A stretch of 32,000 nt of DNA from Carboxydichorda subterranea (GCF_035593305.1 NZ_CP141615.1:2045722-2077721), one strand, 5' to 3'; positions 2 to 18,454 are shown, counted from the first letter of the stretch. The notes: generated from the letters alone by a model not told the origin. Made by a program: numbers and translations.

Positions 2-1543
2 GGGGTTGGTACCGTGGATCAGGCACTCCTGGGCGTCCTGCGCGTGCGCCATCACTTCGTGCGGCTCTGGGGGCTGGCCAATCGTACCGTTGTCCTCGAC
101 GAGGTACACGCCTACGATGCATATACCTCGGGGCTCGTCGAGACGTTGCTCCGGTGGCTGAAGACTCTAGGCTCTTCCGCTATCGTGATGAGTGCCACGC
201 TACCAAGATCCCGGCGCAACGCGATCCTCAAGGCGTATGCGGTCGAACCTCCTCACGAGGACGTCCCATATCCTCGAATCACCATCGCTCAGGGTACCGA
301 GGCACGCTCCCTGCAGGTACTGGGGCTTCCGTCAAGGGCTCTGGCGGTTGGGTCTGCTCCGCGAGACCTGCGGGAGCTGGCCCCCCGCCTGCTGGATGAG
401 GTTCGAGACGGAGGATGTCTGGCTTGCATCGTCAACACCGTGGATCGGGCCCAGCGTCTTTATCAGGCCTTGGGCCCGGGAGAGGCCATCGAGGACCAGG
501 GTATCCGGCTGGGCAAACAGGTCGCCGGGATCCCTGTCTACCTCCTGCATGCCCGTTACCCTGCCGCAGAGCGCCAAAAGCGCGAAGAGTTCCTCATTCG
601 GTGCTTCGGAAAGGAGGGCTATGCGACAGGGACGAGGCCCCACCGGGCCGTTCTCGTCGCCACGCAAGTGGTCGAGCAGAGCCTCGACCTGGACTTCGAC
701 GCGATGGTGACCGACCTTGCTCCCATGGATCTAGTGCTGCAGCGTGCGGGGAGGCTTCACCGGTTCGACCTCGCGGCCCTGTCGAAGTACCTTGGCGGGG
801 CGATGGGCTGGTCTCGACCTGCCGCTCACGCCAGCCCACGTCTGTGGGTGGCCGGGCTGGCCGAAGCGCCTCCTGACCTGGAGTCCGAACACTGGGACAA
901 GGTCTACGCTCCGTATGTCTTGCTGATGAGCTGGTGGGCCCTTCGCAGAGCGCAGATAGTGCGCATCCCCGAAGACCTGGAGGCTCTCGTGGAGCAGGTC
1001 TATGACGCCCCCATTCCTGGGAACCTTCCACCCGACATGGCCGCCTGGTTCGAGGAGGCTCGCTCTCTGTGCGAGCGGCAACAAAGCGACCAACGGGCCT
1101 GGGCTCACCACTCGGCTATCAGCAACCCCAGCGAACTCCTGGCGGACGTACCTACGGACATCCTGGCTCTGTCTGACCTGGATGACGACGAGGAAACCCC
1201 GGTCAGCCAGACGCCGCTTACCAGGTACGGGGAGCCCTCGGTGATGGTGATACCCCTCCACAGGGTGGGCAACCGCCTTGCTCTCGATGCTGCCGGCGTG
1301 AGCCCGGCACAAACGGATGAGGTACCGGAGAACGAGCAAGCTCTGAGGCTTTTCTTGCGGTCGGTCAGGCTCGGCCGGCCGGAAGTCTATCGGGCACTCG
1401 TGAAGACTCAACCACCTGCCGGCTGGGCGAGACATCCTCTGCTGCGTCGCATGCGGGTACTCGAGCTCCTGGATGGCAGGGCGAGGATCGGCCGCACGGT
1501 CGTACGGCTCGATCCGGAGCTCGGCGTTGTCTACGAACCATGA
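2..1543 (+). CDS. cas3: Cas3 helicase, type I-E, C-terminal part (5' end lies outside the window)
   Basis: The open frame runs in from the window edge to TGA 1541-1543. It carries DEAH-box motif II (VLDEVHAYD) and motif III (MSATLP), arranged as in E. coli Cas3/YgcB. It sits directly upstream of cse1, as in canonical I-E loci. The HD nuclease domain and helicase motif I are upstream of the window. Confidence 0.9.
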   Translation, partial: GVGTVDQALLGVLRVRHHFVRLWGLANRTVVLDEVHAYDAYTSGLVETLLRWLKTLGSSAIVMSATLPRSRRNAILKAYAVEPPHEDVPYPRITIAQGTEARSLQVLGLPSRALAVGSAPRDLRELAPRLLDEVRDGGCLACIVNTVDRAQRLYQALGPGEAIEDQGIRLGKQVAGIPVYLLHARYPAAERQKREEFLIRCFGKEGYATGTRPHRAVLVATQVVEQSLDLDFDAMVTDLAPMDLVLQRAGRLHRFDLAALSKYLGGAMGWSRPAAHASPRLWVAGLAEAPPDLESEHWDKVYAPYVLLMSWWALRRAQIVRIPEDLEALVEQVYDAPIPGNLPPDMAAWFEEARSLCERQQSDQRAWAHHSAISNPSELLADVPTDILALSDLDDDEETPVSQTPLTRYGEPSVMVIPLHRVGNRLALDAAGVSPAQTDEVPENEQALRLFLRSVRLGRPEVYRALVKTQPPAGWARHPLLRRMRVLELLDGRARIGRTVVRLDPELGVVYEP

Positions 1544-1628
1544 GGTCCCCTCGTGAAGGGGGTGGCCCGTATTTGTGGGCGGCCCGCTGCCGAGGTCGCC
1601 TGATTCCCCACTCCGTGGGGGCGGTCTA
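1542..1628 (+). CRISPR. Degenerate single-spacer mini-CRISPR (repeat 28 nt, spacer 31 nt, repeat 28 nt) with type I-E repeat architecture
   Basis: R1 (1542-1569) is GAGGTCCCCTCGTGAAGGGGGTGGCCCG. R2 (1601-1628) is TGATTCCCCACTCCGTGGGGGCGGTCTA. Both have 5 nt, then a CCCC...GGGG hairpin, then an 8-nt tail. The stems differ by compensatory changes (CCCCT/AGGGG versus CCCCAC/GTGGGG). They resemble I-E repeats recalled from memory: E. coli GAGTTCCCCGCGCCAGCGGGGATAAACCG and T. thermophilus GTAGTCCCCACGCGTGTGGGGATGGACCG. The spacer (1570-1600) is TATTTGTGGGCGGCCCGCTGCCGAGGTCGCC. The unit has the same orientation as the cas genes. Confidence 0.5.
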
Positions 1629-1650
1629 CATAAATACTTCGTTCTCTGGC

Positions 1651-1679
1651 TTGACCGCTCCCAGGCCTGCCTGTAGAAT
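1651..1679 (+). promoter_or_regulatory. Candidate sigma-70/SigA promoter of the Cascade operon
   Basis: TTGACC (1651-1656), a 17-nt spacer, then TAGAAT (1674-1679). Each hexamer matches the consensus at 5 of 6 positions. It lies in the only AT-rich patch of this region (1629-1740), about 75 nt upstream of the cse1 start. Confidence 0.55.
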
Positions 1680-1754: not shown

Positions 1755-3245
1755 GTGCCTCACTTCAACCTGCTGACAGAGCCTTGGATCCCGGTCAGGG
1801 ACCTCCACGAACAACTCCTGCACGTAGGCCTTCGTGACGCTCTCCTGCACGCTCATCGCCTGCGCCGGATCGAAGACCCGTCTCCCCTGGCCGAGGCTGC
1901 ATTTTACCGCCTGCTGTTCGCAGTCGGGCATCGAGCTCTGAAGGGGCCCCGCAGCCTCGAGGAATCCGTTGAGCTCTTCTATCAGGGCCACCTTCCGGAG
2001 GCGCCGTTCGAAGATTACTTCGAAGCCTTTGCCGACCGCTTCGACCTCTTCCACCCGGAGTTCCCGTTCTTCCAGGTAGCGGACCTTCCAACCGACCAAC
2101 CTCTTCCGTGGACGAAGCTGCTTCCCGAGCTGTCATCCGGAAACAACCCCACCCTCTTCGACCACACGCTCGACAGCGCACCTCCGCCGGCCGCCCCGGC
2201 CGACGCAGCCCGGGCTTTAGTGATTCACCAGGCCTTCACGCCAGGCGGGCTCATCAAGAGGATGGGCGTGACCTCGGGCAAGGCGGCGCCGCTCGCAACT
2301 TCGGCCGTCTTCCTCCCGTTCGGGCAAACCCTCTTCGAGACGCTCCTCCTGGGCATGCCCCCATACGACCCCTTCGGTGACGTTCCCATCTGGGAGGGTC
2401 CACCTTACCGCGCCCGTGATGTGGAGGGCCACCGGACAGAAGCAAGCGTGCAGGGTCGCACGAGAGTCTACACGTGGCTCTCAAGGTCCGTACGGTTGCT
2501 GCCGGAGTCCGATGCTGTGGTACGCTATGTCGCCTACGGCCCCGGGGTGCTACCGGTACAAGACAAGCCCTACTGGGATCCCATGTGCGCCTACTCCAAG
2601 GACGACGCAGGCCAGGAAAGGCCTGTGCGCTTGAGTCGGGATCGAGCCTTCTGGCGAGATTTCGAGTCCCTCCTTCCGGGGGACACCCACAGAGTGCCCA
2701 ACGTACTCGAGCAGGCACGCGGCCTTCTGCTCGAGACGGACCGTCTTGCACTGCTGGTGCCTGTGTCGGTACTGGGCCAGGTAACGGACCAAGCTAAGGT
2801 GCTTTCGACACGGCGGGAGACTTACCCGTTTCCCTTGCAGGCCCTCGATGCACACGCCGCAGCGGCCATTCGGAAGGCGGTCAGCGTGGCCAACGAAAGC
2901 GGTAGCCAATTGCGGGCCGCGGGCTATGTGCTGGCCCGGGCCCTTCTCTCTCCCGCGGGTCGTGAGCCTCCGGCGGAGGAAGTGAGCCGTTTGCTCCACA
3001 GTCTCCCCCTCATGTCGTCGTATTGGTCCTCCCTGGAAACGGCGTTTTCGGCCTACCTCGACGACGTGGCCCACAAAGGGGTGGATGAAGCGTACGATGC
3101 GTGGATCGACCGCATTTCGAAGACCATGTGGCTTGCCTGGGAGCAGACCGTGCGGACGGTCGGCACGCATTCGAGGCACCTCAGGGCGATCGAGGCTGGA
3201 GAGCGTCGGTGCGTCGGAGCCTTTGCCGCATTGAAAGGGAGGTGA
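1755..3245 (+). CDS. cse1: Cse1/CasA (Cas8e), Cascade large subunit
   Basis: The ORF spans 1707-3245. The preferred start is GTG 1755, preceded by GGGGAGG (1741-1747) at 7-nt spacing. The N-terminus FNLLTEPWIPVR matches the hallmark CasA N-terminus (E. coli MNLLIDNWIPVR). The size (about 500 aa) and the position after cas3 also fit. Confidence 0.9.
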   Translation: MPHFNLLTEPWIPVRDLHEQLLHVGLRDALLHAHRLRRIEDPSPLAEAAFYRLLFAVGHRALKGPRSLEESVELFYQGHLPEAPFEDYFEAFADRFDLFHPEFPFFQVADLPTDQPLPWTKLLPELSSGNNPTLFDHTLDSAPPPAAPADAARALVIHQAFTPGGLIKRMGVTSGKAAPLATSAVFLPFGQTLFETLLLGMPPYDPFGDVPIWEGPPYRARDVEGHRTEASVQGRTRVYTWLSRSVRLLPESDAVVRYVAYGPGVLPVQDKPYWDPMCAYSKDDAGQERPVRLSRDRAFWRDFESLLPGDTHRVPNVLEQARGLLLETDRLALLVPVSVLGQVTDQAKVLSTRRETYPFPLQALDAHAAAAIRKAVSVANESGSQLRAAGYVLARALLSPAGREPPAEEVSRLLHSLPLMSSYWSSLETAFSAYLDDVAHKGVDEAYDAWIDRISKTMWLAWEQTVRTVGTHSRHLRAIEAGERRCVGAFAALKGR

Positions 3246-3249
3246 TCAG

Positions 3250-3765
3250 GTGGTCGCCACCAAAGCGGAAGAGTTCGTCCGTTTCCTTGAAGGACTGGCC
3301 AGTAACAGGGGCCCTCTTGCAGCTTTAAGGCGCAGCTTGGCCTTCCATCCCGGGTCGTTCGTGCCCTCCTATCCCTATGTGGAGCCGTTCGTGCGCGACT
3401 ACGAAGGCTGGCAGAGGGAAGCGTATTACCTCGTGGCAGGTCTTTTCGCGCTGCATCCCTTCAGCGGCTCGAAGACCCTGCCGGAGGCCATGGCAGAGTT
3501 ACGCATCACGCGCAAGAGCGCGAGCATCGAGGCTCGTTTCGTTGCCCTGCTGGACTCCGATCGCGACCAGCTTCCCGACCGGCTCCGCCACGCCGTGATC
3601 CTGGTTACCCGCTCGCAGAACATGGCCCTGGACTGGGTACGTTTATTGACAGACGTGGTGGAGTGGTTTCGACCCGACCGGAAGATTCAGAGGGAGTGGG
3701 CCAGGGCCTTCTACCGGGCCATGGGCACGCAGCCAACCCCAGCGGAGGAGGCAGTGAAGGTATGA
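3250..3765 (+). CDS. cse2: Cse2/CasB (Cas11), Cascade small subunit
   Basis: A 171-aa ORF lies between cse1 and cas7. GTG 3250 has AAAGGGAGG ending 7 nt upstream. The call rests mainly on size, helical character and conserved position in I-E operons. Confidence 0.8.
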   Translation: MVATKAEEFVRFLEGLASNRGPLAALRRSLAFHPGSFVPSYPYVEPFVRDYEGWQREAYYLVAGLFALHPFSGSKTLPEAMAELRITRKSASIEARFVALLDSDRDQLPDRLRHAVILVTRSQNMALDWVRLLTDVVEWFRPDRKIQREWARAFYRAMGTQPTPAEEAVKV

Positions 3766-4946
3766 ACCTGGTCGAGATTCACATCATTCAAAACGTAGCC
3801 CCATCCAACCTCAACCGCGACGATACGGGCAGTCCGAAAGACGCGTTCTTTGGCGGAGTGCGCCGTGCCCGGCTCAGCAGCCAGTCGCAGAAGCGTGCCG
3901 TGCGCGACTACTTCAAAGCAACCCTTTCCCACGGAACGCTACAGCCAGACGACCTCGCATTGCGTACCAAGCGCCTGGTGGACGAGCTCACGGACCGCCT
4001 CGAAGTCCAAGGCCATTCCCGAGACGAGGCCCGGCGAGTCGCAAAGGCGGCTCTCGGCGGAATGGGACTTGCGGTCGACGACAGGGAGCTGACCCAGTAC
4101 CTCCTTTTCATGGGCCGGCGAGAGATATCCCGGCTCGCCGATATCATCCACGGTCATTGGCAGGTTCTCACCGAAGTCGCTGCGAGCTCTGAGGCCGGCG
4201 ATGGCCAGGCCAAGGCCAAGAAGAAGGCGGCCAAGGCCGCCGTCCCCTCCGACCTCCACAAGGCATTGGAGACAATCCTCGACGGCGGCAAGGCCGTCGA
4301 TCTGGCGCTGTTCGGGCGCATGCTGGCAGACGAGCCCAAGTGGAGCATAGACGCGGCTGCCCAGGTGGCCCACGCCCTCTCTACCCATCAGGTCGACCGC
4401 GAGTTCGACTTCTACACGGCAGTGGACGACCTCAATCCCAAGGAGGAGACCGGCGCCGGCATGATGGGGGATGTCGAGTTCTATTCCGCCTGCCTTTATC
4501 GTTACGCCAACGTGGACCTGGGCCAGCTGGTGCAGAGCCTCCAGGGCGACAGGGAACTTGCGGCCAAGGGCGTTGAGGCCTTCCTGCGAGGGTTCACGCT
4601 CACTTTGCCCTCCGGCAAGCAAAACAGTTTCGCCGCCCATAACTTACCGGGGTTCGTGGCTCTTGTGACGTCCGAAGCGGCTGCGCCGCGCAACCTCGCC
4701 GGTGCCTTCGAGAAACCAGTGCGGGCCCGGGATCGCCGGAGCCTCTCGGGTTTGTCGGTGGAAGCTCTCCTCTCGACATGGGAGACCCTCGACCGGGCCT
4801 ATGGACGTGCCCGGCGCCAGTGGGTCGCCTTGCTCAACCTGACGGATGCAACGGTGAGCTACCACGGGGAGCACGTGAAACCCAGCTTCGACGAAGCCCT
4901 CACAGCAGCGATGGACGGAGTGAGGACGCTGCTGGAGGTGAAATAG
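3762..4946 (+). CDS. cas7: Cas7e/CasC (Cse4), Cascade backbone subunit
   Basis: ATG 3762 overlaps the cse2 stop (ATGA). The N-terminus is MNLVEIHIIQNVAPSNLNRDDTGSPKDAFFGGVRRARLSSQSQKRAVR. This matches the Cas7e signature (SNLNRDD..G.PK...FGG..R.R.SSQ..KR). Confidence 0.92.
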   Translation: MNLVEIHIIQNVAPSNLNRDDTGSPKDAFFGGVRRARLSSQSQKRAVRDYFKATLSHGTLQPDDLALRTKRLVDELTDRLEVQGHSRDEARRVAKAALGGMGLAVDDRELTQYLLFMGRREISRLADIIHGHWQVLTEVAASSEAGDGQAKAKKKAAKAAVPSDLHKALETILDGGKAVDLALFGRMLADEPKWSIDAAAQVAHALSTHQVDREFDFYTAVDDLNPKEETGAGMMGDVEFYSACLYRYANVDLGQLVQSLQGDRELAAKGVEAFLRGFTLTLPSGKQNSFAAHNLPGFVALVTSEAAAPRNLAGAFEKPVRARDRRSLSGLSVEALLSTWETLDRAYGRARRQWVALLNLTDATVSYHGEHVKPSFDEALTAAMDGVRTLLEVK

Positions 4947-5609
4947 GTGCCCACGTTACTCCTGCGACTCCAGGGGCCCATGCAATCCTGGGGAACACGC
5001 AGCCGCTTCGATGAACGTGACACTGCCCTGGAGCCCTCCAAGAGCGGGGTGCTCGGGTTGGTATCCGCTGCCCTCGGGCGGGGGCGCGATGAGGACATCT
5101 CTGATCTGGCAGCCCTACGAATGGGTGTCCGCGTAGACCGCGAGGGTGCGCTACGCTACGACTACCAGACGGCCCAGGAGGTCCTGCGAGCCGACGGGGC
5201 CGGTCTCCAGCCTACCGTGCAGAGCCGACGGTACTACCTTTCCGATGCCGCCTTCCTGGTGGGACTCGAAGGCCCGGACCGGCCCTTGTTGGAAGCCGTC
5301 TACCAGAGCCTGCGCGCCCCACGCTGGACCCTTTTCCTCGGCAGGAAAGGGTACCTGCCCTCTGCCCCTGTGTGGCTTCCTGACGCGCTCGTGGACGCGC
5401 ACCTGGACGAAGCGCTACGGCGTTACCCGCCGCTGGTCGAGGACCTGCCCGAAGTGATCCGCTTCGTGATCGAGTCAAGCAGCGGCCGGCTCTGCATGGA
5501 CCAGCCACTCGCACCCTTCGCACGCCGTCGGTTTGGGGCCCGGTACGTCAGCAGTTTCACTCATCGACGCGAAGAGGTGGGACCGTGTACCTCTCCAAGC
5601 TGTGCTTGA
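4947..5609 (+). CDS. cas5: Cas5e/CasD
   Basis: GTG 4947 directly follows the cas7 TAG, with GGAGGTG 6 nt upstream. The N-terminus LLLRLQGPMQSWGTRSRFDERDT...PSKSGVLGLVSAALG is the Cas5e signature. Confidence 0.92.
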   Translation: MPTLLLRLQGPMQSWGTRSRFDERDTALEPSKSGVLGLVSAALGRGRDEDISDLAALRMGVRVDREGALRYDYQTAQEVLRADGAGLQPTVQSRRYYLSDAAFLVGLEGPDRPLLEAVYQSLRAPRWTLFLGRKGYLPSAPVWLPDALVDAHLDEALRRYPPLVEDLPEVIRFVIESSSGRLCMDQPLAPFARRRFGARYVSSFTHRREEVGPCTSPSCA

Positions 5610-6235
5610 ATCCGCGCCATCCCCTGGCGCGGCGCGATATCTCCAACCCGTACGAGATGCACTCCACTCTCTCCTGGGTGTTCGAGGAGTGCGAGGTCAG
5701 GCGGTTCCTCTGGCGCCTGGAGCGCGGGCGGGATCCTACGAGGCCGACCCTCTTGCTCCAAAGTATCGCCCTACCGCCCTGGGACCGGCTCCAGGCGAGA
5801 GACGGCTACTCTGGCTACCTGCGCGAGGAACCTCAGACCAAGAGGTTCGTTCTGCCCGAGCGCGTACAGGCGGGACAGGTGTTCCGGTTCCGCCTCCAGG
5901 CCAACGCGACCGTTACTCGCGGCGGGAAACGGTACGGGTTGAGAAGCGAACGAGACCAGATTGCCTGGCTCGAACGCCAGGGTGAGCATCATGGGTTCAG
6001 GCTGCTCTATTATGAGGCAGGAGCAGGCACCAGGATTCCCAGTTGTCAGGTCACGTCGGCGGAGCGCCGGGCTTTTCGCAAGCGCCGGCAAGACCCACCC
6101 ATCGTTTTGTGGTCGGTGACGTATGACGGTTACCTCCAGGTTACCGACCCGAGAGGTCTCCAACAGGCACTGGTCAACGGCCTCGGACACGGCAAGGCCC
6201 TGGGCCTGGGGTTACTCTCTATCGCCCCCGCCTGA
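5585..6235 (+). CDS. cas6e: Cas6e/CasE (Cse3), crRNA endoribonuclease
   Basis: The start is GTG 5585, which overlaps the cas5 end by 25 nt. The N-terminus YLSKLCLNPRHPLARRDISNPYEMHSTLSWVF and the C-terminal Gly-rich loop GLGHGKALGLGLLSIAP are typical of CasE. Confidence 0.92.
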   Translation: MYLSKLCLNPRHPLARRDISNPYEMHSTLSWVFEECEVRRFLWRLERGRDPTRPTLLLQSIALPPWDRLQARDGYSGYLREEPQTKRFVLPERVQAGQVFRFRLQANATVTRGGKRYGLRSERDQIAWLERQGEHHGFRLLYYEAGAGTRIPSCQVTSAERRAFRKRRQDPPIVLWSVTYDGYLQVTDPRGLQQALVNGLGHGKALGLGLLSIAPA

Positions 6236-6316
6236 GCTGAGCCGTCTGCCGACGGACTCTGTCTGGGAATGCATGGTGGCGGGCGAGCACCCGCCTGACC
6301 TCCGCCACCCAGCGGG

Positions 6317-6362
6317 GCCCGCATTGGTGCGGGCGCCGCCGAGGGCTGTGATAGCCACAGCC
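6317..6362. terminator. Two GC-rich hairpins between the convergent cas6e and fur genes (possible bidirectional terminator)
   Basis: GCCCGCA-ttgg-TGCGGGC (6317-6334) and GGCTGTG-atagc-CACAGCC (6344-6362). Neither has a clear U-tract. Confidence 0.3.
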
Positions 6363-6851
6363 TCACCCCTCTTGCCGGCCTGGAGCCCCCTCCTGAAGTG
6401 GCCCTCGTCGGTCCTCCCGATCGCGCCCCGCCGCCCGGCACTCGGGGCAGTAGCCGGTGAAGTGGAGCGAATGGTCCACCACCCGGAAACCCGTCTCCGC
6501 CTCGATCCGCCGCTCGAGCGGCTCGAGCAGGTCCTCCTTGAACTCGAAGATCCGGCCGCAGCCGAGGCAGATCAGGTGGTGGTGGTAGTGACCCTTTTCG
6601 AGCCCGAACTCGAACCGGTCCTCCTCTTCGCCCACGTTGAGCCGGTTGGCCACGCCCGCCTGCTCCAGCAGCGGCAGCGTCCGGTAGACGGTGGCGAGCC
6701 CCAGGTCCGGATGCGCCCGCCGGGCGTTCTCGTACAGCTCGAGCGCGCTGAAGTGGCGGTCCGGATGCGCCGCCAGCACCTCCACCACCGCCAGCCGTTG
6801 CGGCGTCACCCGCACCCCCGATGCCTCGAGCCTGCGCCGGGCAGCCTGCAC
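6363..6851 (-). CDS. Fur-family metalloregulator (Fur/Zur/PerR type not resolved)
   Basis: The N-terminus is a winged helix (VTPQRLAVVEVLAAHPDRHFSALELY...ATVYRTL). The metal-site motifs HYHHHLICLGCG and GYCPEC are present. Length is 162 aa. Confidence 0.88.
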   Translation of the reverse strand: MQAARRRLEASGVRVTPQRLAVVEVLAAHPDRHFSALELYENARRAHPDLGLATVYRTLPLLEQAGVANRLNVGEEEDRFEFGLEKGHYHHHLICLGCGRIFEFKEDLLEPLERRIEAETGFRVVDHSLHFTGYCPECRAAGRDREDRRGPLQEGAPGRQEG

Positions 6852-6945
6852 CCGCCCCTCCGCTCCGGAGCCCCCGGGCGTCTGCCCGTGGCGCCGTCGC
6901 GGCAGCCGCGCCGCCCCGGTGCCTCCCGGCTGCGCTCGAGCAGGG

Positions 6946-8475
6946 TCACGAGGAGGAAGTCCCAGGCTCTCCCAGCTCCCGCCTCATCAACTCGCCGACC
7001 GTCTTGGGGTTGGCCTTGCCTTTCGAGAGCTTCATGACCTGGCCCACCAGGAACCCGGCCGCCTGCGCCTTGCCCGCGCGGTAAGAAGCCACGGCGTCAG
7101 GATTGGCCTCGATGGCCTGCCGCACCCAGGCGAGCAGCTGCGCTTCGTCGCCGACCTGCTCCAGCCCCCGGGCCCGCACGATCTCCTCGGGAGCGCGGCC
7201 GCTCTTGAAACTCTCCTCCAGCACCTCTTTCCCGACGTTGGCGGAGATCCGCCCGGCCGAGACCAGGCGCAGCACCTCGACGAGGTGCTCCACCCACTCG
7301 GGGCGCCCGGCGAGCACCCCCGGCTCCTCGCCGGAGGCGCCCAGGATCCGCAGCACCTCGCCCATCACCCAGTTGCTCACGGTCTTGCCGTCTTTCCACC
7401 GCGACGCCGCCTGCTCGAAGAAGCCGGCCAGCGCCGGGTGCTGGCAGATGACCCAGGCGTCGTAGGCGGGCAGCTGCCACTGCTCCATGAGCCGCCGGCG
7501 CCGGGCCGCGGGGAGCTCCGGCAGGCTCTGGCGCACCCGCTCCACGTACGCTTCGTCCAGCGCCAGCGGCGGGATGTCCGGCTCGGGGAAGTAGCGGTAG
7601 TCCTGCACCGTCTCTTTGCTGCGCATGGGGATGGTGGTACCGCTCGCCTCGTCCCATCCCCGGGTCTCCTGGACGATCCGGCCCCCGTCCTCCAGGACGG
7701 CCGCTTGCCGGTAAGCTTCGTAGCGCAGCGCCCGCTCGACGGCCCGCAGCGAGTTGATGTTTTTCACCTCGGTCTTGGTGCCGAGGCGAGTCTCGCCGGG
7801 CCGGCGCAGCGAGATGTTGGCGTCGCAGCGGAGCGACCCTTCTTCCATCTTGACGTCGGAGACGCCGAGGTACTGCATGACGCTGCGCAGCTCCTCGAGG
7901 AAAAGGCGCGCCTCCTCGGGCGTGCGCAGGTCGGGTTGGGTCACGATCTCGATGAGGGGCACGCCGCTCCGGTTGTAGTCGACCAGCGAGTAGCGGCTCC
8001 CGGCGATGGTGGCCGTCGAGTGCACCAGCTTGCCGGTCTCCTCCTCCAGGTGCACCCGGATGATGCCGACGCGCCGCGTCCTCCCCCCGACCTCCACCTC
8101 GAGGTAGCCGTCCCGGCACAGCGGCAGGTCGTACTGCGAGATCTGGTACGCCTTGGGCAGGTCGGGATAGAAGTAGTTTTTGCGGTCGAACTTGGCGTAC
8201 GGCGCGATCCGGCAGTGGAGCGCCAGCCCCGCCCGCACCGCGTACTCCACCGCCTTTTCGTTGAGCACCGGCAGGCTCCCGGGAAGCCCCAGGCAGACGG
8301 GGCAAACCTGCGTGTTGGGCGGCGCTCCGAAGCGCGTGCTGCACCCGCAGTAGATCTTGGACTCGGTCGCGAGCTCCACGTGGATCTCGAGGCCGATGAC
8401 CGCCTCCCACCCCGGCGGCACGCTCGGGGCGGCCTGCGCCTGCGCCGTCGCCTGGGCCGGCATCTGGGCCTTCAT
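6946..8475 (-). CDS. gatB: Asp/Glu-tRNA(Asn/Gln) amidotransferase subunit B
   Basis: The motif [47 protein letters not shown] is present. The start ATG 8475 overlaps the gatA stop (ATGA). The longer ORF reaching 8625 is an upstream extension that overlaps gatA. Confidence 0.95.
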
Positions 8476-10016
8476 CGTGCATCCCCCACCGCTACCCGGG
8501 GCCTTGCTCCCCGTACGCCGCTGGTCTCTTCCACCGCCCGGGCGACGCGCAGGATCTGCGGCTCCCCGAAAGCGGGCCCGATCACCTGCAGCCCGATGGG
8601 CAGGCCCTGCGACGAGAAGCCGCACGGCACCGAGACGCCCGGCAGCCCCGCCAGGTTGACGCTGAGCGTGTAGATGTCGGTCAGGTACATCTGCAGGGGG
8701 TCCTCCACCTTCTCCCCCATGCGAAACGCCACCGTCGGCGCCACCGGGGTGATCAGGGCGTCGACCCTGGCGAACGCCGCCTCGAAGTCGCGCCGGATGA
8801 GCGTGCGCACCTTCTGCGCCTTGAGGTAAAACGCCTCGTAGTACCCGGCGCTCAAGGCGTACGTACCGAGCATGATGCGCCGTTTCACCTCGGGGCCGAA
8901 CCCCTCTCGCCGGGTCTTGGAGAACTGCTGGACGATGTCGTCGCCCGGCACCCGCAGCCCGTAGCGCACCCCGTCGTAGCGGGCCAGGTTGGAACTCGCC
9001 TCCGAGGGGGCAATGATGTAGTAGACGGGCAGCGCGTACGCGAGGTGCGGGATGCGCACCTCGACGATCTGGGCCCCTTCCCTCTCCAGGCGCCGGACGG
9101 CGCCCATGACCGCCTCCCGCACCTCGCCGTCGAGCCCTTCGCCGAAGTAGTCGGGCGAAAGGCCCAGCCGCAGCCCCTTCACGCCCTCTTCGAGGGTGCG
9201 GAGCACGGGCTCGGGGGGCCGGGGCGCCGACGTGGAGTCCAGGGGATCATGCCCGGCGATGGCTTCGTAGACCAGCGCGGCGTCCTCCACCGTCCGGGCC
9301 AGCGGGCCGACCTGGTCGAGCGAGGAGGCGAAGGCGATGAGCCCGTACCGGGAGACCGACCCGTAGGTCGGCTTGAGGCCCACGACCCCGCAATAGGCCG
9401 CCGGCAGCCGCACGGAGCCCCCCGTGTCGGAGCCGAGTGAAAAGACCGCCTCTCCTGCGGCCACCGCCGCCGCCGACCCCCCGCTCGAGCCGCCCGGCAC
9501 CCGGCTCAGGTCCCACGGGTTGCGGGTGACGCCCAGGGCGGAGTTTTCGGTCGACGAGCCCATGGCGAACTCGTCCATGTTGACCTTGCCCAGCATGACC
9601 GCCCCGCGCTCGTCGAGGCGCCGGACGGCCGTCGCACTGTACGGCGGCACGAATTGCTCCAGCATCTTCGAGCCGCACGTCGTGCGCACGCCGGCCGTGC
9701 ACAGGACGTCCTTGCACGCCCACGGGATCCCGAGCAGCAGCTCGGGCCCGCCGGCCGAGCTCTGCAAGCCGGAGGGGCTCGAGGCGGTCTGCGAGCGAGG
9801 CTCCTGCCGCAGCCGCCGCAGCTGCTCGTCGGCAGCGCCGGCCTGGGCCAGCGCCCGGTCGGCGACCACGGTCAGATAAGCGCCGACCGACGGGTCGACC
9901 CGCTCGATCTGGCGCAGGTGCGCTTCGGCCAGCTCCCGGGCCGTGACCTCGCCCCGGCGGAGCAGCCCGGCGAGCTCCCGGATACTGGCGAAGACCAGCG
10001 ACGATGGATCGGCCAT
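8472..10016 (-). CDS. gatA: Asp/Glu-tRNA(Asn/Gln) amidotransferase subunit A
   Basis: It carries the amidase signature ([18 protein letters not shown] and [14 protein letters not shown]). It lies between gatC and gatB. Confidence 0.95.
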
Positions 10017-15623: not shown

Positions 15624-17423
15624 ATGGGCAACGCGGTGCGGATCACGGGGCGTAGAGGCCTAGGAGATACCCTGGTCGACCAGGGGCTTGTCACCCCAGC
15701 GCAGCTGCAGGAGGCCGTGGCCGAGCAGCGGCGGACGGGCAAGAGCATCGTGCGGGCGCTGCTCGATCTCGAGCTCGTGAGCCCCGGCCAGATGGCCGAC
15801 GCGCTGTCCGCGTACCTCGGCATCCCGCGTGTTCGATGGGACCAGGTGGAACTCCGCCCCGAGCTCGCCCGCGTGCTGCCCGAGCGGTTCTTGAAAGAAG
15901 GGGTGCTGCCCGTGCGGGTGGAGGGCAGCACCCTCTTCCTCGCCATGGTCGACCCCATGGACGTCATGCTCCTCGACGACGTGCAGGCGGCCACCGGCAT
16001 GCACGTCGTACCGCTGGTGGCCACGGAGCCGGAGATCGAGGTGGCGCGGGGGCAGGTCTTCAGCCTGGCCCTCTCCACCGAGGAAGTCGTCGAGCAAATC
16101 GAGCCCGAGGAAGAGCCTCTCAACGAGCAGGAGCTCATCGACCCCAACTCCCCGGCCGTCCGCATGGTCAACCTCATCCTGGCCGACGCCGTCCAGCGGC
16201 GGGCCAGCGACGTCCATCTGGAACCGCAAAGAGATCGCCTGCGCGTGCGCTTTCGCATCGACGGCCTGCTGCGAGACGTCAGCACGGTTCCCCGCCAGCT
16301 CATGCCGAGCGTCGTCTCCCGGGTGAAGGTCATGGCCGGGCTCGACATCGCCGAGCACCGGCGCCCGCAGGACGGCCAGATCCAGATGCGGATCGGCGAG
16401 GCGCAGGTCGACATGCGAGTCTCCGTCATGCCGACCATCCACGGCGAGAAGGCCGTGGTGCGGTTGCTCAACCGGAGCGCCGGGCTCATCACGCTCGACC
16501 AGTTAGGTTTCCTGCCCGAGGCGCGCCTCCAGGTCGACGAGATGCTGCGCCAGCGCCAGGGCCTCATCCTGCTCACGGGGCCCACCGGGAGCGGCAAGTC
16601 GACGACCCTTTACGCCTTTTTGCAGGCGCTCAACACGCCCGAGCGCAACATCATCACGGTGGAAGATCCGGTGGAGTACCACGTGGACGGCATCACGCAG
16701 GTGCAGATCAATCCCCGGGCCGGCATCACCTTCGCCAACACGCTGCGCAGCGTGCTCCGCCAGGACCCCGACGTGCTCATGGTCGGGGAGATCCGGGATC
16801 AGGAGACCGCGCAGATCGCGGTGCGGGCAGCCCTCACCGGGCACCTGGTGCTTTCGACGCTGCACACCAACTCGGCGCCCGGCAGCGTGGTGCGGCTCAT
16901 GGACATGGGGGTCGAGCCGTACTTGCTGAGCGCCACCCTGGTGGGGGTCGTCGCGCAGCGCCTGGTGCGGGCCGTCTGCCGCGACTGCCGGACGACGGGC
17001 GTGCCGGAGCTCACGCCGGCCGAACGGAGCTTCCTCGGCCCCGCCTATCACGGCGAGCCCCTCGCCTGGGGGCGCGGCTGCCAGGTGTGCGAAGGCACGG
17101 GCTTTCGCGGCCGGGTCCTGATCGAGGAGGTGCTCCTGGTGGACCGGGCCATCCGCGATCACATCGCCGGGCAGCCCTCCGAGGATACCTTGCGGCAGCT
17201 CGCCATGAAGGCAGGCATGAAGACGCTCAAGGAAAGCGGCATCGCCAAGGCGCTGATGGGAATCACCACCGTGGGCGAGGTCTTCCGGGCGCTGTACAGC
17301 CTCGACGAGTGGAACGGCAAGGAACCATGGCAAACCGGCGGCACGGGCGAGGCCGCGGCCGCGCTCGCCACCGCAGGGACTGAACAACCTTCGAGTCTCG
17401 AGGCCGAAGAGGTGCGCCCATGA
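15624..17423 (+). CDS. pilB: Type IV pilus assembly (extension) ATPase, GspE/PilB family
   Basis: It has an N-terminal T2SSE_N/MshEN-like domain, Walker A (GPTGSGKSTTLYA), Asp and His boxes, and a tetra-Cys motif (CRDC...CQVCEGTG). Confidence 0.93.
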   Translation: MGNAVRITGRRGLGDTLVDQGLVTPAQLQEAVAEQRRTGKSIVRALLDLELVSPGQMADALSAYLGIPRVRWDQVELRPELARVLPERFLKEGVLPVRVEGSTLFLAMVDPMDVMLLDDVQAATGMHVVPLVATEPEIEVARGQVFSLALSTEEVVEQIEPEEEPLNEQELIDPNSPAVRMVNLILADAVQRRASDVHLEPQRDRLRVRFRIDGLLRDVSTVPRQLMPSVVSRVKVMAGLDIAEHRRPQDGQIQMRIGEAQVDMRVSVMPTIHGEKAVVRLLNRSAGLITLDQLGFLPEARLQVDEMLRQRQGLILLTGPTGSGKSTTLYAFLQALNTPERNIITVEDPVEYHVDGITQVQINPRAGITFANTLRSVLRQDPDVLMVGEIRDQETAQIAVRAALTGHLVLSTLHTNSAPGSVVRLMDMGVEPYLLSATLVGVVAQRLVRAVCRDCRTTGVPELTPAERSFLGPAYHGEPLAWGRGCQVCEGTGFRGRVLIEEVLLVDRAIRDHIAGQPSEDTLRQLAMKAGMKTLKESGIAKALMGITTVGEVFRALYSLDEWNGKEPWQTGGTGEAAAALATAGTEQPSSLEAEEVRP

Positions 17424-18454
17424 ACGAGACGCTGGATACGTTGCTGCGGATCACGGTAGAGCGACACGCCTCGGACCTCCACCTGACCTCGGGCGTGCCA
17501 CCCATGCTGCGCATCCACGGGCGGCTCGAACCGCTCGACGGATACAAGGTCCTGATGCCGGCGGACCTGGAGGGGCTCATCCGGCCCATCCTCAACGAGG
17601 GGCTGTTGCGCACGTTCGAGCAACAGGGCCAGGTGGATCTGTCGCACGGGGTGCCGGGGGTCGGGCGGTTCCGGTGCAACGTCTTTCGCCAGCGGGGTTC
17701 GTGGGGCATGGCCGCCCGGGTGATCCCGGCCGAGGTCCCGTCGCTCGACCAGCTCGGGCTGCCCCCGGTGGTCGCCGACCTTTGCGGGCGGGTCGACGGG
17801 CTCATCCTGGTGACCGGGCCCACCGGCAGCGGCAAGTCGACGACGCTCGCCGCCATGATCGATCACATCAACCAGCACCGTAAGACCGTCATCATCACGC
17901 TGGAGGACCCCATCGAGTACCTGCACCGCCACAAGATGAGCGTCATCAACCAGCGGGAGATCGGCACCGACACGACGTCGTTCGCGGCCGCGCTGCGGGG
18001 AGCGCTCAGGGCCGACCCCGACGTCGTGCTGGTCGGGGAGATGCGGGACCTGGATACGGTCGCCACGGCCCTGCGGGCCGCCGAGACAGGGCATCTGGTA
18101 CTTTCGACGCTTCACACCCGGGGCGCGGCGGAGACGGTGGAGCGGGTCATCGACATGTTTCCGCCCGAACAGCAGCGGCAAATCCAGCTGCAGTTCGCCT
18201 CGACCATTCAGGCGGTCATCTCGCAGCGGCTGCTCCCGAGGGCGGACGGGCAGGGGCGGGTGCTGGCCTGCGAGGTGATGGTGGCCACGCCGGCCATCCG
18301 CACCATGATCCGGGAGAGTAAGTGGCACCAGATCCCGGCCGCCATCGAGACGGGGGCGCGGTTCGGGATGCGCACGCTGGAGGCCTCCATGCGGGCGTTG
18401 CTGGAGCGGGGGCTCATCGATCCCGAGGAGATGCTGGCGCTCAAGCGGGAGTAG
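17420..18454 (+). CDS. pilT: Twitching-motility (retraction) ATPase
   Basis: Length is 344 aa. Walker A is GPTGSGKSTTLAAM. The PilT signature is AIRTMIRESK (compare AIRNLIRE). The ATGA junction overlaps the pilB stop. Confidence 0.93.
   Translation: MNETLDTLLRITVERHASDLHLTSGVPPMLRIHGRLEPLDGYKVLMPADLEGLIRPILNEGLLRTFEQQGQVDLSHGVPGVGRFRCNVFRQRGSWGMAARVIPAEVPSLDQLGLPPVVADLCGRVDGLILVTGPTGSGKSTTLAAMIDHINQHRKTVIITLEDPIEYLHRHKMSVINQREIGTDTTSFAAALRGALRADPDVVLVGEMRDLDTVATALRAAETGHLVLSTLHTRGAAETVERVIDMFPPEQQRQIQLQFASTIQAVISQRLLPRADGQGRVLACEVMVATPAIRTMIRESKWHQIPAAIETGARFGMRTLEASMRALLERGLIDPEEMLALKRE

Follow-up and report, generated by a model that had tools for sequence, protein, structure and literature searches.

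In type I-E CRISPR-Cas systems, degenerate mini-CRISPRs whose guides direct Cascade to a cas promoter are an already known and experimentally validated kind of element, and the element described here is not a new category. Mini-arrays between cas3 and cas8 occur in ~19% of bacterial I-E loci (Shmakov 2023, bioRxiv 10.1101/2023.03.03.530964 / PMC10120712). Their distal repeat is degraded, and their predicted targets lie at the cas8 promoter next to a canonical PAM, with a mismatch noted at position 6; some of the I-E examples are read as transcribed in the direction opposite to cas3, and Thermus is not named in the text of that study (PMC10120712). In the case of Salmonella enterica, the type I-E CreR (Liu 2023, bioRxiv 10.1101/2023.03.10.532045; later crlRNA) is a degenerate repeat-spacer-repeat unit situated between cas3 and casA/cse1, with a 5' handle in psi-R1, a hairpin in psi-R2, and no associated toxin gene. 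The 5' end of its guide matches an AAG-PAM site upstream of the first Cascade gene over a length too short for interference. With its 15-nt match and AAG PAM, this CreR represses PcasA 8.6-fold via the E. coli Cascade, and the circuit is sensitive to crRNA load as well as to AcrIE8 (bioRxiv 10.1101/2023.03.10.532045). In CreTA (CreA + CreT) of the Haloarcula hispanica I-B system, a degenerate mini-CRISPR guide with ~11 nt of PAM-flanked partial complementarity brings Cascade to a promoter, which is thereby repressed. As cited in bioRxiv 10.1101/2023.03.10.532045, tracr-L (Workman et al. 2021) is likewise a natural non-canonical guide, with ~11-nt complementarity, through which the effector autorepresses the cas9 operon promoter; there, the effector is a class 2 single protein and the guide is derived from the tracrRNA, so that the parts are not homologous. 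Phages mimic the guides of such regulatory mini-arrays.

The locus examined here shares the arrangement of the Salmonella CreR, but differs in the extent and placement of the pairing. In Salmonella, 15 consecutive nucleotides are paired, whereas 7 of the first 8 are paired in this locus. Its mini-CRISPR abuts the cas3 stop codon and leaves no room for an intergenic promoter of its own, and its target directly adjoins psi-R2, at a distance of 11 nt from the downstream -35 box. By family, the repeats are Thermus/Bacillota-like rather than enterobacterial. Compared with the mini-arrays of Shmakov 2023, the distal repeat is similarly degraded, but the element is co-directional with cas3, and its 7-8 bp of pairing and 69%-identical first repeat probably fall below both thresholds of that pipeline, which demands 16 bp or more of repeat match and 10 bp or more between spacer and target. 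Compared with CreTA, the subtype is I-E instead of I-B, the promoter targeted is that of the cas operon itself, and no toxin gene is evident between the targeted promoter and cse1, although Thermus-type relatives have an ORF of 71-85 aa at this position; the ~11-nt pairing length of CreA equals the consensus pairing length of the family to which this locus belongs. The features that distinguish the locus, as read from its sequence, are that only the seed is paired, that the target lies one helical turn upstream of the -35 box, and that the unit sits directly at the cas3 stop codon.

The window, a stretch of 32 kb from Carboxydochorda subterranea, carries a type I-E operon on the plus strand in the order cas3, mini-CRISPR, and cse1-cse2-cas7-cas5-cas6e. 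The 3' part of cas3 (helicase-nuclease, 1-1543), recognized by the NCBIfam Cas3 models, ends with the stop codon TGA (1541-1543) inside the first repeat-like unit; the full-length gene is present in the near-identical strain L001 (Logan contig, 99.1% identical). cse1 (1755-3245) begins with GTG behind the ribosome-binding site GGGGAGG (1741-1747), and translation from 1755 gives a Cse1 of 496 aa with 100% identity to that of Carboxydochorda subterranea. It is followed by cse2 (3250-3765), cas7 (3759-4946), cas5 (4947-5609), and cas6e (5585-6235), and all five proteins of this Cascade operon (1755-6235) are NCBIfam equivalog matches above the cut-off. Neither cas1-cas2 nor a CRISPR array was found 3' of cas6e in the window (Tandem Repeats Finder and direct-repeat searches for the array). 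In L001, however, the degenerate tail of a CRISPR array with the repeat GTACTCCCCACGCGTATGGGAGTGGACCG is located ~90 nt upstream of cas3, and the upstream order in relatives is cas1-cas2-array-cas3 (L006) or array-cas3 (L088, L090). This array tail, together with the gene order of the relatives, indicates that the I-E system is probably complete, with the array and the adaptation genes upstream of the window. The paper describing Carboxydochorda does not mention CRISPR. Beyond the operon, the stretch 6236-8700 contains a fur-family gene convergent with cas6e (6363-6851, minus strand), followed by gatB, gatA, gatC, and ligA, likewise on the opposite strand. Two neighboring genes farther along share a 57-nt stretch that is 84% identical (16560-16616 and 17798-17854) and encodes the Walker-A-type motif GPTGSGKSTT; these genes are probably paralogous secretion or pilus ATPases and have no relation to the mini-CRISPR.

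The cas3-cse1 intergenic region of 211 nt holds a repeat-spacer-repeat unit that sits inside the cas locus and outside the true array, which lies upstream of cas3 in L001. The two repeat-like units are 60 nt apart. The first degenerate repeat, psi-R1 (1541-1569, plus strand), overlaps the cas3 stop codon and comprises a hairpin (CCCCT/AGGGG) followed by a predicted 8-nt 5' handle, GTGGCCCG, which equals the canonical GTGGACCG of relatives at 7 of 8 positions in the alignment with the array repeats of L001 and relatives. Counted by hand on the alignment, psi-R1 is identical to the array repeat at 20/29 positions. The spacer-like guide, psi-S (1570-1600, plus strand; 31 nt), starts with TATTTGTG (1570-1577), and its complementarity to the target is limited to the first 8 nt. 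The second degenerate repeat, psi-R2 (1601-1629, plus strand), keeps the hairpin CCCCAC/GTGGGG, the predicted 3' handle, and has a degenerate 3' tail, GCGGTCTAC. Except for the G/C runs of the hairpin, which form the invariant alignment columns, the two repeats have little in common. This asymmetry, in which psi-R1 retains the 5' handle and psi-R2 retains the hairpin, fits the CreR/CreA rule (bioRxiv 10.1101/2023.03.10.532045), and both the handle/hairpin block of psi-R1 and the psi-R2 block are kept in the alignment of the closest relatives. The DNA copy of the guide itself (1570-1600) is flanked by CCG and lacks a PAM, as in normal arrays. The unit at 1541-1629 was not reported as an array by the tandem-repeat or direct-repeat searches of the window, and a permissive Rfam search of 1300-1900 returned one spurious lncRNA as its sole match.

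Just downstream of the spacer, the reverse complement of 1629-1639 reads AAGTATTTATG, that is, a predicted AAG PAM (1637-1639, minus strand; CTT on the plus strand) followed by the seed target TATTTATG (1629-1636, minus strand). The target matches guide positions 1-5 and 7-8, with position 6 (G versus A) as the sole mismatch within the first eight, and guide positions 9-13 are mismatched throughout. An 11-nt linker (1640-1650) separates the PAM from the -35 box of the predicted cse1 operon promoter (1651-1679, plus strand), which consists of TTGACC (1651-1656), a 17-nt spacing, and TAGAAT (1674-1679). This is the single sigma-70-like site in a promoter scan of 1300-2000, where 0.1 would be expected, and it leads through a 5' UTR of ~70 nt into cse1, with no separate gene evident between them. 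Two SNPs distinguish the window from L001 in the intergenic region, at 1642 and 1644, and both fall within the linker. Every coordinate and sequence given for this arrangement in the initial annotation, which had pointed out the PAM-flanked seed match, its collapse beyond position 8, and the distance of the PAM from the TTGACC hexamer, is borne out by these checks.

The match is short, AT-rich, and was found post hoc, and the spacer has a normal length (31 nt), as would be expected if the unit were an ordinary one-spacer remnant of defense against a mobile element with a fortuitous seed match beside the promoter. Nowhere else in the window, however, does the spacer have as good a seed-type match as at 1629-1639. 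The combined PAM and seed pattern AAGTATTTNTG occurs once in the 32 kb on both strands (64 kb of sequence) and is absent from 100 dinucleotide-preserving shuffles of the window. When the 153 nt downstream of the spacer (1602-1754, psi-R2 included) are shuffled, AAG plus the seven seed positions appears on either strand in 42 of 300,000 shuffles (1.4e-4), and in 187 of 300,000 when four permissive PAMs are allowed. The PAM and seed match thus exceeds chance even with post hoc searching generously allowed for. In addition, compared with the array repeat, both repeats of the unit show strong degeneration, the PAM-distal part of the spacer has no exact match in viral contigs, and, in the closest relatives, the seed is invariant and the remaining spacer is unconserved. 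Counting the window, 19 non-redundant loci have this arrangement, with covariation. A defensive remnant is therefore extremely improbable. Pure chance is excluded by the local statistics and the recurrence across loci, and the main weight is carried by the recurrence, above the local estimates.

Loci encoding Cse1 relatives were gathered by looking up exact proteins and by scanning genomes and metagenomes. A free search for inverted matches over 420 nt upstream of cse1 gave many GC-rich matches by chance in the cas3 coding sequence, and the mini-CRISPRs were instead located by the handle-like motif GG[AGT]TG[AG][AC]CC[GA] shortly after the cas3 stop codon. In these homologous I-E loci, with Cse1 45-61% identical, the mini-CRISPR follows cas3 directly. 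Including the window, 19 non-redundant loci have a spacer whose first ~11 nt match a minus-strand site beside the -35 box of cse1, with AAG as the PAM in 17 and AGG and AAT in one each. AAG is the commonest I-E PAM and goes with repeats ending in G (PMC8482600); the array spacers of L120 and L088, searched against phage genomes in near and distant modes, yielded no protospacers from which the PAM could be inferred. The extent of pairing varies among the loci. In L006, 14/14 nt are paired and the AAG overlaps TTGACA. In L092 and L093, 11/12 are paired with a mismatch at position 6, and in Thermus composti and T. scotoductus, 10/11 are paired with the same mismatch, all with AAG. L004, with AGG, is mismatched at positions 6, 12, and 14. 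Most relatives pair ~10 effective bp, with the PAM and the -35 box overlapping (cTTGACa).

Counted over 17 non-redundant loci, guide positions 1-5 match in 17, 17, 14, 17, and 16 loci and positions 7-11 in 17, 16, 15, 15, and 13, whereas position 6 matches in 4 and position 12 in 5, the 25% level expected by chance. Positions 13-18 match in 6, 7, 4, 3, 3, and 2 loci, so that pairing stops near position 11. In type I-E Cascade, each sixth guide base is flipped out (PMC5904413), and this 5+1 periodicity corresponds to the pairing pattern expected of Cascade and is unlike that of an RNA helix. The sites in these 17 loci were picked by their score over positions 1-5 and 7-11. When they were re-selected with 12 equally weighted positions on both strands and with the PAM ignored, the same site was recovered in 14 of the 17 loci, with AAG in 12, AGG in one, and AAT in one; the exceptions were L005, L110, and the window, whose own site is not the top match by this measure. 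Guide and target change together. Across the 19 loci, 82.7% of the cells are paired, compared with 36-48% when the partner is slid by 1-3 columns, and double changes are found at 11 of 14 guide-target positions. The covariation score, calculated on sites chosen as best matches, is 0.587, compared with 0.213 +/- 0.031 in shuffles (0/500 reach it) and 0.12-0.15 in the slid controls. The initial annotation had named the absence of conserved seed-target pairing in orthologous loci as evidence that would count against it; the spacer and the target instead co-vary, and the comparative data support its proposal of a binding-type guide of the CreR/CreA kind at the cse1 promoter.

The same complementarity could also be read as an RNA-level element, in which 1569-1577 would pair with 1629-1637 in the read-through RNA, enclose the spacer and psi-R2, and modulate Cas6e processing or transcript stability without DNA targeting. 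The inverted repeat 1569-1577/1629-1637 was recovered independently. In favor of this reading, the stem is present in the minimum-free-energy fold of 1536-1650, and many spacer/target mismatches in the family would be G-U wobbles in RNA. The fold, however, is no better than that of shuffled sequences (z = -1.44), and the stem is missing from the centroid structure. The wobbles do not discriminate, because rG:dT pairs are equally possible in a crRNA-DNA hybrid. Furthermore, it is specifically positions 6 and 12 that are left unpaired across the family, and the pairing ends at ~11, for which a helix offers no reason; the pairing always begins exactly at spacer position 1 and always lies beside the promoter; the adjacent AAG is kept even where it is apart from the -35 box; and the distance between the two arms varies from 53 to 165 nt. 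An RNA element acting without DNA targeting is accordingly very unlikely. Mini-CRISPR anatomy, PAM-flanked seed complementarity, promoter-side position, and evolutionary maintenance are all apparent from the sequences themselves, and together they point, with high confidence, to an element of the CreR type under selection.

Four loci, L090, L169, L170, and L088 (L088 = L089 = L168), are the nearest relatives of the window, with Cse1 54-57% identical to its Cse1. In this subclade, the PAM is located 10-11 nt upstream of TTGACC/T. All four relatives have gaps of 10 nt, so the 11-nt gap of the window is ruled out as a recent accident of one strain. The linkers are similar in length but unconserved in sequence in the window and the four relatives (CGTTCTCTGGC, CGCGGCGGTC, AGTTACCCTA, CGTCGACCCC, and CAAGAACGTC), and in the subclade alignment TTGAC is invariant and the -10 block partly conserved. 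Paired guide positions are 1-5 and 7-8 in the window, 1-5 and 7-9 in L090, 1-5 and 7-10 in L169, and 1-5, 7-8, and 10 in L170. L088 has an AAT PAM and 13/15 positions paired, with mismatches at 5 and 12. The window, L090, L169, and L170 have the seed TATTT, the target AAATA, and the CTT in common without any change, whereas substitutions have saturated the linker and the remainder of the spacer. None of these four loci pairs at position 6 (G/A, G/A, T/C, and T/A), and the T:T of the window at position 7 corresponds to C:C in L090, L169, and L170, which is a compensatory change. For most of the 19 loci, TT is common to the CTT of the PAM and the -35 hexamer, and PAM conservation is there partly promoter conservation; the PAM is separate from the -35 box solely in the five subclade loci. 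Since the two are physically apart in the subclade, conservation of the PAM there is independent evidence for selection on it.

These data bear on whether the element is a vestigial CreR, in which a functional ancestor has had its pairing eroded to the bare seed and its site pushed away from the -35 box, such that Cascade may touch the site but does not regulate cse1 in any meaningful way. Most relatives pair ~10 effective bp directly on the -35 box, compared with 7 at a distance of 11 nt in the window, and seed-only binding is transcriptionally inert in E. coli (PMC5904413). The element has also clearly been lost in some relatives: in L091, the spacer is deleted between two repeat remnants, with the target and the -35 box retained, and L096, L097, L171, and L174 have no mini-CRISPR. 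On the other hand, four divergent loci (Cse1 ~54-57%) keep the seed, the PAM, both hairpins, and the linker of 10-11 nt in intergenic DNA that is otherwise saturated. Together with the compensatory change from T:T to C:C at position 7, this conservation indicates continuing selection on the pairing instead of decay, and a vestigial state is unlikely. For the thermophilic Bacillota-type clade formed by the window, L090, L169, and L170, it can tentatively be suggested that selection keeps a guide with 7-9 effective bp and a PAM 10-11 bp upstream of the -35 box, a possibility that is still doubtful. In several of the loci that lack the element, cas3 and cse1 almost abut.

The preferred reading is autoregulatory: the guide of this degenerate one-spacer CRISPR probably steers Cascade to its own promoter and thereby limits its own production, as in CreR-type mini-arrays. 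The mini-CRISPR would be transcribed in the cas direction, either together with cas3 or from a start inside it, and probably as the 3' end of the cas3 transcript, because a promoter scan of 1300-1650 found no promoter-like site preceding it. From the anatomy of the repeats, Cas6e would be expected to cut at the two hairpins and release a crRNA-like RNA of ~60 nt, composed of the 5' handle GUGGCCCG, the 31-nt guide, and the hairpin of psi-R2. Cascade loaded with this RNA would recognize the AAG PAM at 1639-1637, with guide positions 1-5 and 7-8 paired to the plus strand at 1636-1629, and would sit on 1605-1639 via a seed-only R-loop. As the pairing ends after position 8, no full R-loop would form and Cas3 would not be licensed; cleavage is not expected, because interference in E. 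coli requires >18 bp of pairing (PMC5904413). The bound complex would instead act as a DNA repressor or a roadblock that lowers cse1-cas6e transcription, whether it hinders RNA polymerase at the promoter's upstream margin or stops polymerases that read through from cas3. Cascade would in this way limit its own abundance by negative feedback, which competing crRNAs or anti-CRISPRs would lift, as shown for other CreR elements.

Whether such binding is strong enough to matter can be weighed from both sides. An AAG PAM with 5 seed bp is enough for in vivo Cascade binding in E. coli, but in the same organism, off-target binding through the seed alone does not detectably alter transcription, and R-loops of partial length are unstable (PMC5904413). 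The 7 effective bp of the window are fewer than in any experimentally validated CreR/CreA (11-15 nt), the target lies off the -35 box with its PAM 11 nt upstream, and a thermophilic host disfavors a short AU-rich hybrid. That the element measurably represses cse1 in C. subterranea is, accordingly, proposed with moderate confidence. The location of the site one helical turn upstream of the -35 box and the 7 effective bp suggest that any repression is probably weaker than in most relatives and that the feedback in this lineage is probably weak or finely tuned.

If the element is functional, seed-only Cascade binding can regulate transcription with fewer base pairs than the 11-15 bp shown so far, contrary to the inert off-targets of E. 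coli, and the mechanism might be occlusion of the UP element/alpha-CTD or a roadblock to cas3 read-through, not masking of the -35 box. Since the guide is apparently the 3' end of the cas3 transcript, the Cascade level would follow cas3 transcription. The subclade suggests that the bare seed may be the lower limit of regulatory pairing, which bears on the number of seed-only chromosomal sites that Cascade could regulate, and the element is a useful natural test of minimal pairing for Cascade-mediated regulation. The natural variation among the related loci displays the pairing rule of Cascade very cleanly in vivo, with 5-nt segments, a free sixth base, and a functional length of ~11 nt. CreR-type autoregulation of Cas proteins would extend to deep-branching thermophilic Bacillota (Limnochordia) and to Thermus-type I-E systems. 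For annotation, such elements will escape screens with a 10-bp minimum match.

Several minor features of the promoter region and of the related loci were also observed. A second inverted repeat, 1616-1626/1653-1663 (TGGGGGCGGTC/GACCGCTCCCA; 10/11 complementary), has one arm in the 3' half of psi-R2 and the other in the -35 region, with the target site between them; this repeat is not kept, by eye, in L090, L169, and L170 and is possibly due to chance. In the 5' UTR of cse1, ~23 nt at c. 1690-1712 (CTTCTTCTCCCAATGAGTGGTAA), with an out-of-frame ATG at 1703, are missing from the four subclade relatives. At guide position 6, the commonest combination among the 19 loci is G in the guide and T in the target strand (8/19), in which an rG:dT wobble is possible; candidate explanations are a bias of mutation, conservation of an ATA motif upstream of the -35 box, and a weak role of position 6 in initial binding, as proposed for E. 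coli. The ORF of 71-85 aa that Thermus-type relatives have between the CreR-targeted promoter and cse1 is conserved (MGQWLP.EELS...RVNERQRERRLLLQTGSLDEPD.I) and unannotated; it lies at 3034-3291 in L107 and is also present in L156, L159, L109, L110, L042, L131, and L019. No Pfam or PADLOC match was obtained for this ORF, and it could be a cargo under CreR control, such as a regulator or a CreT-like factor.
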